Below, piece by piece: positions 1,032 through 3,513 of a stretch of DNA of 64,000 bases (within the stretch, counting starts at the first letter, position 1; each line of letters starts with the position of its first letter). This DNA is from an uncultured Planctomycetota bacterium (GTDB lineage: Bacteria; Planctomycetota; Planctomycetia; Gemmatales; Gemmataceae). The stretch spans positions 640,001 to 704,000 of the forward strand of contig CAWKHF010000012.1 of NCBI GenBank assembly GCA_963849325.1, given 5' to 3'. A program made the translations under genes and the position numbers. The notes under the pieces are model-generated. The model saw nothing but the letters and a program-made list of their open reading frames with translations, was not told where the DNA came from and searched no databases.

Positions 1032-2099
1032 TCAGGGGATGAGCGTTGCCCGCCATTGCTCATCGAGTTCCTGGACCGTCTTGCCCGTCAGCGTCTGGAA
1101 CGCTTCCTCCTTGTACTTGCCCTCGCGCATCAACTGGTTAAGTTTGCGCACGAGTCCCTTGTCGTATTTCTCGGTGACGTAGGCCAGGAACGCCGCCGTT
1201 ACCCGATAGCTGCCGTTGTAGTGGGCTCGCTTCGGATTGATGGGTCCCAGCTTGCCTGGCTCGTACTTGAAGAAGCGGATGTAATCGGCGATGCCCTCCA
1301 CCAGCCAGCCTGGATTGCCCCGAGAACGATAATCCTGCACGATGTGGACCGTCTCATGGACCATCGCGCCAACGTCCTGGGGGCGGTCCTTGAACCACTT
1401 CACCGAACCCGTGATGCGACCGCCGCCGGCCGCCGCCACGCCTCGATAGTCCTTCCGCAGTGTCATCTTCACCACACGCCGCGGCCGGAAGCCGTCGCTC
1501 TTCAGTTCCTCGTTAATCATCGGATATTGGCGCTCGCAGATGCGCGCGGCCTTGTCGGCCCAGTCCTTCATCTCCGGCGCATCGCTCACGTCCACGACGA
1601 ACTCGACGGGATACTTGAAGATCGCCACCGCCGGATCGGACTCGATGGTGATCTCGCGGACGGCCAGCGGGTGCGGCAAGTCCGCGGCGGGTTTGATCCG
1701 AATGGCCTTGATCTGCCGGTCCGCGGGCCGAGCACGGGCAACTCCGTCCGCGAACTTCGCCACGGACTCGAACTTGTCGCCGTCCGCCGAAACCTCCAGT
1801 GTCCCCGCGTCGAGCTGGTCGCGTCCCTCGGGCCGGCCGGTGGTGACGACGAGGGACTTCACGGCCACCAGCTTGTCGAGCACCAGCGTGAAATGATCGC
1901 TCGCGCCGACGTTCTTCTCCGAAGCGAAAAACGTCGCGGGATCGCCGTCGAAGGCGAGCTGGCGGATGTGATCGGCATCCGTTGTCAGCGTCGTTTCGAT
2001 GGTCGCGGCCACCGGCGATTTCGCTGGCTTCGCGGTTGGTGTCTCCCGCGCCAGGCATGGCAGTGCGACGAGGAAGAGGAACGGAAGCAAACGTCGCAT
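1032..2099 (-). CDS. Secreted BSP-family (basic secretory protein) metallopeptidase-like protein with N-terminal discoidin-like domain
   Basis: Signal peptide MRRLLPFLFLVAL; HETVH zinc motif then PGWLVEGIADYIR and YRVTAAFL. Confidence 0.75.
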   Translation of the reverse strand: MRRLLPFLFLVALPCLARETPTAKPAKSPVAATIETTLTTDADHIRQLAFDGDPATFFASEKNVGASDHFTLVLDKLVAVKSLVVTTGRPEGRDQLDAGTLEVSADGDKFESVAKFADGVARARPADRQIKAIRIKPAADLPHPLAVREITIESDPAVAIFKYPVEFVVDVSDAPEMKDWADKAARICERQYPMINEELKSDGFRPRRVVKMTLRKDYRGVAAAGGGRITGSVKWFKDRPQDVGAMVHETVHIVQDYRSRGNPGWLVEGIADYIRFFKYEPGKLGPINPKRAHYNGSYRVTAAFLAYVTEKYDKGLVRKLNQLMREGKYKEEAFQTLTGKTVQELDEQWRATLIP

Positions 2100-2110
2100 G
2101 AAGGGCCTTC

Positions 2111-2623
2111 CTATTCTGGATCCCTGGAATGGCAACTACCCCCGGCAGGACTCGAACCTGCGGCCGTCGGTTTAGAAAACCGATGCTCTATCCTCTGAGC
2201 TACGGGGGCAAATAATCGATCTACTCCCAAGTAATCGCTCGCTGCCCACTTGGCATTGGGGTCGAAGCGAACCCAGATTTCGGCTGCCATAGTGGCCGGT
2301 ATTTCATCCGTCCTCAGATAGTAGACCTTATCGGTATCCGGGCAGTAGACCGCAAATCCATCGATTTTCGTTCGATCCAGAATACATGACGTACATCCTC
2401 CACTCCAGCTGTAGCAACTACGCAATCGTATACTGAACTTATTGTCTTTGCGTGTGGAATACCGAACTTGCACTCTCCTCAGTAGACAATCGGCATTCAC
2501 TAACACCAGGTCAAAAGGTAGGTGTTCTGTAATCGGTATACACGCCTTGACGCCCGCCTTGGCGGCTTCGGCAATAACCGCAGCCACCGCCACATCGCCC
2601 TTCTCTTTCGTATGGTGGCTCAT
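2111..2623 (-). CDS. PD-(D/E)XK endonuclease of the group I intron-associated (I-Ssp6803I-like, PDDEXK_5) family
   Basis: TKEKGDVA...PFDLV...RVQVR...IDGFAVYCPDTDKVY; SD GAGGAGGT before ATG at 2623; visibly lower GC; ORF reads through the tRNA. Confidence 0.8.
   Translation of the reverse strand: MSHHTKEKGDVAVAAVIAEAAKAGVKACIPITEHLPFDLVLVNADCLLRRVQVRYSTRKDNKFSIRLRSCYSWSGGCTSCILDRTKIDGFAVYCPDTDKVYYLRTDEIPATMAAEIWVRFDPNAKWAASDYLGVDRLFAPVAQRIEHRFSKPTAAGSSPAGGSCHSRDPE
2137..2209 (-). tRNA. tRNA-Arg(UCU), intact, no intron, CCA not encoded
   Basis: Minus strand GCCCCCG TA GCTC AGAGGATA GAGC A TCGGT TTTCTAA ACCGA CGGCC GCAGG TTCGAGT CCTGC CGGGGGT A folds as a full cloverleaf; anticodon TCT. Confidence 0.95.
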
Positions 2624-2627
2624 ATTA

Positions 2628-2671
2628 CCTCCTCGGGAGCGGCGGTGCATTGTCCCTTATGCTACGGGAGC
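2628..2671 (-). pseudogene. Degenerate tRNA 5' half (acceptor 5' strand, D arm, decayed anticodon arm)
   Basis: GCTCCCG TA GCAT AAGGGACA ATGC A CCGCC GCTCCCGA GGAGG aligns without gaps to the first 26 nt of the downstream tRNA-Arg; no T arm. Confidence 0.6.
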
Positions 2672-2757
2672 CTTCGCTCCCGGTCATTAGAGCAAACCCG
2701 AATAGGGACAGCAACCCATGCCGTGTCCTCCACCATCGGCGTGAGTGAACGCGACTG

Positions 2758-3513
2758 CTATCTCAGCACCTGGATGAGCTTGACGAGCACCACGTCGGCG
2801 ACGAGGACGAGGAAGATGGACACGACGACGCCGCGCGTGGCGGCCTGACCGACGCCCTCGGTGCCGCCGCGCGCGTTCATGCCGAACCAGCAACCGCTGA
2901 CGCCGATCAGGTAGCCGAACACCACCGTTTTCAGCACGGCCGGGATGGCGTCGCTCAAGGTGAGGACGCGCAGGCACTCCGTGCGATACTGCGTCCAGGA
3001 CAGGCTGCCGCCGAGCGCCTCGGCGACGAAGCCGGCGCCCAGCGCCAGATAGGCGATGAACAAGGTCAACAACGGCAGCGCCACCATGCAGGCGAGCAGA
3101 CGCGGCGCCACCAATTCCCGCAGCGGCGAGAGGCCGAGCACTTCCAGAGCGTCGATTTGTTCGGTCAGCCGCATCGATCCCAGTTCGGCCCCGAGACTGG
3201 CGCCGGAACGGCCGGCGACGAGAAGGCCGGCGGCCAGCGGCGCGAATTCGAGCACCACGGCCAGGGACAGCGCTTGCGGCAAATACTGCACGGCGCCCGG
3301 CCCGCCCACCGTCTGCAAGGAGCCGCGCAGGTGCAGCCAGACCACCGCGCCGATGGCGACCCCCGCTGCCACGCCCAGTGGCAGCGCCCCCAGCAGGATT
3401 TGATGGAGCTGGACGTGCAGAGAGGACAACCGGCGCAGGGCAAACGGCAACGCCAGCAGCGCTCGTCCGGCGAAGTAGATGGCGTGTCCCAGGCTTTCGA
3501 GGAAGGCGAGCAT
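2758..3513 (-). CDS. MlaE-family ABC transporter permease
   Basis: AGRSGASLGAELGSMRLTEQIDALEVLG and GGTEGVGQAATRGVV; start MLAFLESLG. Confidence 0.9.
   Translation of the reverse strand: MLAFLESLGHAIYFAGRALLALPFALRRLSSLHVQLHQILLGALPLGVAAGVAIGAVVWLHLRGSLQTVGGPGAVQYLPQALSLAVVLEFAPLAAGLLVAGRSGASLGAELGSMRLTEQIDALEVLGLSPLRELVAPRLLACMVALPLLTLFIAYLALGAGFVAEALGGSLSWTQYRTECLRVLTLSDAIPAVLKTVVFGYLIGVSGCWFGMNARGGTEGVGQAATRGVVVSIFLVLVADVVLVKLIQVLR

Follow-up and report, generated by a model that had tools for sequence, protein, structure and literature searches.

A probable intron-less homing cassette that carries a replacement tRNA into a tRNA-Arg(UCU) gene of a Gemmataceae bacterium

In Synechocystis, a group I intron in the transfer RNA (tRNA)-fMet gene encodes the PD-(D/E)XK homing endonuclease I-Ssp6803I. 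In fungal mitochondria, free-standing endonuclease genes insert at the end of a protein-coding gene, for example, atp6 of Allomyces, along with a foreign copy of that end. SegB of phage T4 is described as a free-standing GIY-YIG homing endonuclease encoded in a tRNA gene cluster that recognizes a conserved tRNA-gene motif and spreads with the neighboring tRNA genes, excluding the recipient markers (PMC2330249). Another paper cites Williams 2002 for tRNA-targeting integrative elements that carry the 3' part of a tRNA in attP, and attributes partial tRNA genes to integrating elements and clustered regularly interspaced short palindromic repeats (CRISPR), not to nucleases (PMC9897764); in work on tRNA arrays, a gene for an HNH homing endonuclease was noted next to such arrays. 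Here we analyze a stretch of 64,000 nucleotides (nt) from an uncultured Gemmataceae bacterium (assembly GCA_963849325.1, contig CAWKHF010000012.1, positions 640,001 to 704,000; hereinafter, the window) in which a gene of the PF11645 family lies between the 5' half of one tRNA-Arg(UCU) and a complete copy of another. This element is, in our view, likely to be an intron-less homing cassette that spans about 0.5 kilobases (kb), comprising a leader with a Shine-Dalgarno sequence, the PF11645 gene and a foreign allele of tRNA-Arg(UCU), which inserted into the native tRNA-Arg(UCU) at nt 31/32.

The element is on the minus strand of the window, as are all the features given below with window positions. 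Read 5' to 3', the locus begins with a promoter-like block (2714-2686), in which TTGCTG (2714-2709) is separated by a 17-nt spacer from TCTAAT (2691-2686), followed by the remnant of the native tRNA-Arg(UCU) (2671-2641; GCTCCCGTAGCATAAGGGACAATGCACCGCC), that is, the 5' strand of the acceptor stem, the D arm and the 5' strand of the anticodon stem, or about nt 1-31/32. The left end of the cassette is a leader (2640-2624) containing the Shine-Dalgarno sequence GAGGAGG (2634-2628), 4 nt before the ATG at 2623; the sequence that follows the remnant up to this ATG reads GCTCCCGAGGAGGTAAT. The endonuclease gene (2623-2211) consists of 137 codons as far as the tRNA, and the open reading frame (ORF) reaches the tRNA without any stop and stays open through all of it, adding 33 codons (2210-2111) that end with the stop at 2113-2111. 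The complete, cassette-borne tRNA-Arg(UCU) (2210-2136) was called by ARAGORN at 2136-2210 and by the Rfam tRNA model at 2137-2209, with 72.1 bits. The G+C fraction of the cassette is 0.508 vs 0.686 in the preceding MlaE gene, 0.633 in the peptidase gene beyond the tRNA and 0.645 in the whole window. Thus, both the low-GC PD-(D/E)XK ORF and the intact tRNA downstream of it, which had been recognized in an earlier interpretation made without database searches (the sequence-only reading), are borne out. The cassette-borne copy is the only credible tRNA-Arg(UCU) of this assembly, which is 84.7% complete; three other ARAGORN calls of tRNA-Arg(tct) 'with introns' elsewhere in the genome are artefacts of the intron mode and do not resemble tRNAs.

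The native half-tRNA is recognizable only against the corresponding allele of related genomes, and it is the orthology with this allele that identifies it as real. Within 1900-3000, the Rfam tRNA model gave no match to the 5' half at E <= 10, and the local alignment score between the half and the neighboring tRNA was reached by 60 of 200 shuffled sequences, that is, did not rise above chance. The tRNA-model search of the upstream segment that was proposed in the sequence-only reading thus does not detect the half; comparison with the relatives settles its identity instead. The first 27 nt of tRNA-Arg(UCU) from a sister species match 2671-2645 with 2 mismatches, and none of 100 shuffled sequences produced any match. 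In another genome of the same genus (G009), the MlaE gene is followed by the same upstream block and then by an intact tRNA-Arg(UCU) with the D stem (GCAT/ATGC) and the anticodon-stem strand of the window fragment, which is colinear with it. A 10-way alignment shows homology from the promoter block to about nt 31/32 of the tRNA (about 2641), where it ends; therefore, 2671-2641 represents what is left of the native gene, and everything from 2640 onward, including the Shine-Dalgarno sequence, is foreign. The half, previously delimited as 2671-2628, is accordingly genuine but shorter, with 2640-2628 belonging to the cassette leader, and GAGGAGG is part of that leader rather than the end of a decayed anticodon arm.

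The same comparison supplies the empty alleles that the sequence-only reading had called for: behind the conserved upstream block, 9 of the 10 genus relatives have an ORF-free tRNA-Arg(UCU), and a protein search detected no ORF at the tRNA-Arg(UCU) locus of these relatives. The alleles are of two types. Type A, defined by the D stem GCAT/ATGC and the anticodon stem C(C/T)CGC, is found in seven relatives (G002, G004, G005 and G007-G010), and type B, with the D stem GCTC/GAGC and the anticodon stem TCGGT/ACCGA, in two (G001 and G003); for G006, the tRNA-Arg(UCU) comparison yielded only a 77% match. In the window, the half is of type A, and the complete tRNA is of type B, sharing 97% identity with tRNA-Arg(UCU) from G003. 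What had been taken for a D stem compensated by changes in place thus reflects the two allele types of the genus. Upstream of the tRNA, the positions of the promoter-like block (TTGCTG ... TTTGCTCTAATG) vary little or not at all among the 10 loci of the genus that were aligned, and this conservation suggests that the TTGCTG/TCTAAT block is the promoter of the native tRNA; a simple sigma-70 scan of 1900-2900 called no promoter at its thresholds. In the predicted fold of 2635-2682, the tRNA remnant is enclosed by pairing between CGGGAGCG, which precedes the half, and CGCTCCCG, which immediately follows it. There are two copies of the heptamer GCTCCCG, one where the half begins and one where the cassette leader begins. 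The folding z-score of the leader is modest (-2.37), and we draw no conclusion from it.

The same genome (G000) contains a second cassette (L003; contig C10, 444226-444817), in tRNA-Ala(CGC), which is broken after nt 31. The ORF encodes a PF11645 paralog (E = 3.8e-28) that is 27% identical to the window protein. It is preceded by TTGCTG, 18 nt and TATAAT, an exact duplicate of nt 1-26 of tRNA-Ala(CGC), CAGCG and a Shine-Dalgarno sequence, and its stop codon is followed by 18 nt and an intact tRNA-Ala(CGC). The uninterrupted tRNA-Ala(CGC) of G001, G002, G005 and G007 reads ...GAGCG CAGCG TTCGCAA TGCTG..., and that of G010 has TGGCG/TGCCA, so that CAGCG is the anticodon-stem strand of four of the five sequenced empty alleles. 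Because CAGCG continues the upstream copy just as it does in the empty alleles, this copy represents native nt 1-31. The ORF-linked tRNA differs in the anticodon stem (TCGCG/TGCGA), the variable loop and the T stem. The terminator 3' of this tRNA is homologous to that of the empty alleles, which places the right junction within the last nucleotides of the tRNA. All 10 relatives have an empty tRNA-Ala(CGC), as read directly in five of them and judged in the other five from the spacing of BLAST pieces and a protein search. When 2.5 kb around each of the 91 tRNAs of the genome was scanned for 26-nt duplicates of tRNA ends, with up to 5 mismatches, only the tRNA-Ala(CGC) cassette and one unrelated match were found. 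A third paralog (L002; contig C6, 18346-18836) is convergent on tRNA-Ala(GGC), with overlapping 3' ends: its frame enters the 3' half of the tRNA antisense and stops in the anticodon stem. Paralogs of this type are found at tRNA-Ala(GGC) in 5 of the 11 genomes of the genus and are absent from that locus in the rest; at L002, no half-tRNA scar was seen.

Phages carry cassettes of the same kind. Among 30 viral loci with relatives of the window protein (32-46% identity in the best segment), 28 contain a tRNA within 700 nt of the start of the match. One conserved unit, which consists of a leader, an ORF that also matches PF11645 and tRNA-Arg(UCU), is embedded in unrelated flanks in L169, L170, L174, L175 and L176 (L177 equals L176 in the parts compared). 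The ORF stops at the TAG formed by nt 8-10 of the tRNA. Each unit is located behind a tRNA-Arg 5' half, with an acceptor stem that varies from contig to contig and the end ...GAGCA ACACA (ACTGC in L170). In L169 and L175, the cassette is followed by the matching native 3' part, which comprises TCTAA TGTGT, the variable loop, the T arm and the acceptor. Scanning viral sequences with this 3' part retrieved 14 contigs, 13 with an uninterrupted tRNA-Arg(UCU) (...ACACA CTTCTAA TGTGT...) and one that is the L175 contig itself. Comparison of the uninterrupted alleles with the split halves maps the phage insertion to the interval from nt 31 to nt 34 of the target, which coincides with the site of both Gemmataceae insertions. 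About 50 nt of leader before the ORF (alignment columns 88-140) hardly vary, columns 88-138 being identical in all five units; the synonymous sites of the ORF diverged meanwhile (synonymous divergence, dS, up to 0.72), and the leader seems to be under a constraint of its own and might act as a promoter or RNA element or contain a nuclease site.

Translated from the ATG at 2623, the window ORF matches PF11645 with E = 9.4e-22 and 78 bits (cut-off, 26.1), residues 3-122 being aligned to positions 1-120 of the 138-position profile. The AlphaFold2 model of the protein has a predicted local distance difference test (pLDDT) score of 91.2, and its best four Foldseek matches are chains A-D of I-Ssp6803I (2OST), with E = 9.9e-10 and template modeling scores of 0.80/0.75 for chain A; the direct sequence match to I-Ssp6803I is weak (E = 0.0018). 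The protein has the residues that hardly vary within the family, among them D38, which is invariant, and Q52, which is nearly so; those of the D ... (E/Q)xK motif would have the catalytic roles. On profile and fold, the window ORF is a member of the PF11645 family of I-Ssp6803I-type PD-(D/E)XK endonucleases, with presumed nuclease activity and, by analogy, a presumed target of the corresponding kind.

The closest homologs, P0001-P0007, are 59-79% identical to the window protein (79% for the metagenome proteins P0001 and P0002). Among these, P0001-P0005 and P0007 (150-155 aa) end in APVAQxDRAxxF; P0006 (133 aa) ends before this tail. When back-translated, APVAQxDRAxxF reads as a tRNA-Arg 5' half, and the stop would be the TAA of the UCU anticodon loop, 12 codons into the tRNA. 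In the window, a D loop with one base fewer shifts the frame and so lengthens the read-through; reading through the tRNA is also seen in two homologs that are more distant. In two sets of related ORFs, the ratio of non-synonymous to synonymous divergence (dN/dS) is 0.00-0.28, which indicates purifying selection on the relatives.

The association with tRNA genes extends across the protein family. All six paralog loci of the genus adjoin a tRNA, and so do 76 of the 78 PF11645 genes in species genomes from Solirubrobacterales, Gaiellaceae, Blastocatellia, Eremiobacterota and other groups; the tRNAs at these 76 loci are Ala-GGC, Thr-UGU or Thr-GGU, and the two exceptions end at a contig edge. At 39 metagenome loci, found in a scan that recovered only relatives with 29-42% identity, a tRNA lies within 200 nt in 16 cases (13 of these with tRNA-Arg(UCU) just upstream) and farther away in 12, with none in the fetched stretch in the remaining 11. 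Where the ORF directly precedes a tRNA on the same strand (56 loci), no stop occurs before the tRNA in 51, and the frame then stops inside the tRNA in 17 and is open through it in 34. Among the metagenomic and viral loci L120-L150 and L182-L197, a large subgroup has tRNA-Arg(UCU) 50-70 nt 5' of the ORF, often inside phage-type tRNA arrays, and another subgroup has tRNA-His(GUG) 200-370 nt downstream. Within the bacterial family, only 7 of 252 genomes yield any match at E <= 1e-5, none of them close to the window ORF; from this distribution and the low GC content, the cassette is sporadic and foreign.

What is observed directly is the anatomy of the cassette and its insertion site, the existence of alleles with and without it, its recurrence in phages and at other tRNAs, and purifying selection on its relatives. 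The nuclease gene lies outside any intron or intein and is present or absent at a conserved locus, as in free-standing homing, and both in the window (where a type B tRNA accompanies a type A half) and in L003, the linked tRNA is a foreign allele, as in co-conversion. The native promoter and 5' half are left upstream of the window cassette, and the native 3' half is gone. On the mechanism that we propose, the nuclease would cut cassette-free tRNA alleles in the anticodon stem-loop, by analogy with I-Ssp6803I, which targets the anticodon region of a tRNA gene, a site comparable to that of the insertion in the window. The cassette tRNA would escape cutting thanks to its different anticodon stem: the linked and native tRNAs differ in three of five stem positions in the window (with compensating partners), two of five in L003 and four of five in the phage set, and on these sequence differences the linked allele is putatively immune. 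Repair of the break from an occupied allele would then copy the nuclease gene and the resistant tRNA together, and splicing would not be needed because a working tRNA comes with the cassette. The native 3' half could have been lost later, by recombination between the two tRNA 3' ends, or through co-conversion.

As judged from the anatomy, the native tRNA promoter may transcribe the leader, the ORF and the tRNA as one RNA, from which the tRNA would be cut out. More speculatively, release of the tRNA by RNase P would leave a nuclease mRNA without a stop codon and so limit the enzyme to a low, non-toxic level. The sequence-only reading had proposed a minimal selfish element that enters a tRNA gene near the anticodon, and the empty alleles, the second cassette, the five phage contexts and the tRNA linkage of the family all support this proposal; its corollary that the element restores a full tRNA needs amendment in that the cassette does supply one but does so by bringing in a whole foreign allele. 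A broader and tentative generalization, about which we are more doubtful than hopeful, is that such elements form a widespread, undescribed class of tRNA-replacement cassettes, each composed of a stop-less nuclease gene and a resistant tRNA, that enter anticodon loops in bacteria and phages and drive horizontal turnover of tRNA alleles. If such a class exists, it would explain the presence of two tRNA-Arg(UCU) allele types in the genus, and an essential tRNA would depend on transcription through a selfish gene.

The main alternative to homing is that the ORF-tRNA pair moves passively, by illegitimate or phage-mediated recombination, and performs some host or phage role, in defence or in a tRNA-related task, without driving its own spread. 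Purifying selection is compatible with any function, the ORF-tRNA pair seems to be a stable arrangement in Solirubrobacterales and related groups, and most loci of the family lack an insertion scar. Passive movement nevertheless appears unlikely to us, given that three unrelated tRNA/ORF pairs share the tRNA position of the breakpoint (nt 31-33), that the linked tRNA always differs in the anticodon stem, that one conserved cassette recurs in five unrelated contexts and that the prototype of the family is a proven homing enzyme, according to the PDB title, with a tRNA gene as its target. Several observations weigh against homing by this cassette and should be set beside these arguments. In 100 tRNA-adjacent loci searched for a half-tRNA scar with blastn-short, short matches were found in 11, none of them flanking the ORF, and a more sensitive alignment of 53 other ORF-then-tRNA loci produced a single case at 0 of 60 shuffles, which does not involve a 5' half and looks like chance. 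The anticipated recurrence of the half-ORF-tRNA arrangement with different tRNAs is therefore seen at tRNA-Ala(CGC) and in phages but not at these 53 loci, and most copies of the family may spread or persist in another way, the scar being rare. The family motif VQ(V/C)K appears as VQVRY in the window protein, with R54 aligned to a lysine in I-Ssp6803I and in other members, a substitution that also speaks for passive movement; it is shared by the whole close clade and so may be tolerated. The 33-residue read-through tail is missing from the closest homologs. Finally, the right-hand border of the insertion in the window cannot be placed, synteny 3' of the tRNA not being kept in the genus.

Two further explanations also have to be weighed against homing of an intron-less cassette. 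The locus could be a relic of a group I intron that lost the ribozyme and kept the endonuclease gene, a tRNA duplication having rescued function; the prototype is, after all, intron-encoded, relatives are named 'group I intron-associated' at NCBI, and the same genome has a probable group I intron in tRNA-Arg(CCU). We regard this history as very unlikely: there is no Intron_gpI match at E <= 10 within 1900-3000, the 17-nt leader and the ORF abutting the tRNA leave no space for an intron core, what follows the ORF is a whole tRNA of the other allele type rather than a 3' exon, and in phages, the insert between both native halves consists of the ORF plus a tRNA. Still less can be said for an island once mobilized by an integrase or transposase, or for a local tandem duplication, with loss of the mobility gene, a scenario to which we assign hardly any probability. 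Integration often occurs at tRNA genes and leaves partial copies of them behind (PMC9897764), but the tract inserted here measures only about 0.5 kb, it is the 5' half and not the 3' part that is duplicated, and no integrase or transposase is encoded within about 4 kb; the half and the full tRNA are different alleles, which excludes a local duplication. The lack of an intron core, integrase and transposase, which had already been noted from the sequence alone, was thus upheld by Rfam in 1900-3000 and by Pfam analysis of the flanks.

In the window, the locus is preceded by the MlaE gene (PF02405), which ends at 2758 on the minus strand, and the tRNA is followed by a gene for a BSP-type peptidase, both identified by Pfam; a chorismate-binding enzyme and unassigned ORFs are the other neighbors. 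Elsewhere in this genome (L161; contig C6, 90865-91306), the anticodon loop of tRNA-Arg(CCU) is split by an intervening sequence of ~369 nt that has no long ORF and is probably a group I intron. The counterpart of this insert in G007, of about 270 nt, scores 24.5 bits on RF00028, below the threshold, and 3' of the tRNA-Arg(CCU) of G007 (L164:800-1000), there are tandem units of ~55 nt, each with a long palindrome, for which Rfam gives only spurious microRNA-type matches. In another Gemmataceae genus (L159:1423-2023), an intact tRNA-Arg(UCU) is followed, after 5 nt, by a 38%-identical ORF that ends at a TAA within a decayed tRNA-like stretch, and then by two copies of the T-arm/acceptor part.

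Taken at face value, these cassettes imply that a homing endonuclease can colonize an essential, very short RNA gene without an intron by bringing a substitute gene. If this is correct, they would provide a concrete route by which tRNA alleles could be replaced horizontally among species and among phages, account for some of the orphan tRNA halves in genome annotations, and correct the 'group I intron-associated' label for much of PF11645. They would also be a source of compact natural nucleases, for which comparison of an empty allele with its occupied counterpart reveals the likely target, a tRNA anticodon stem-loop. Frames that end within the tRNA or past it are relevant to the way in which the expression of these enzymes is limited. 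In open-access papers and preprints, we found no description of an arrangement in which a nuclease gene is joined to a replacement tRNA.

Among the known systems, I-Ssp6803I (PDB 2OST) resembles the window element in the Pfam family, in the fold over the whole length and in having a tRNA host gene. Unlike the prototype, the window gene has no intron or ribozyme, carries a replacement tRNA that its ORF overlaps, has an arginine for the aligned motif lysine and resides in tRNA-Arg(UCU), not tRNA-fMet. The fungal mitochondrial genes are alike in that the nuclease gene travels with a substitute segment and the original is left as a pseudogene, and they differ in involving a protein gene, GIY-YIG or LAGLIDADG nucleases and organelles instead of a tRNA gene, a PD-(D/E)XK nuclease and bacteria or phages. 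The nearest studied case is SegB, likewise a free-standing nuclease gene among tRNA genes (PMC2330249). SegB has another nuclease fold, lies between the genes of a phage cluster and, as far as reported, neither splits a tRNA nor is fused to a replacement tRNA; sites of the window type are chromosomal as well as phage-borne, and a broken native half remains at them. tRNA-targeting integrative elements also carry the displaced part of the tRNA, so that an intact tRNA is kept and a partial copy marks the other end, but they employ a recombinase, span kilobases and duplicate the 3' part, whereas the cassette has no recombinase, measures ~0.5 kb and leaves the 5' half or, in phages, both halves. 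The tRNA-gene cassette is thus probably a form of free-standing, intron-less homing, in which a reading frame that ends inside or beyond the tRNA is a new feature.

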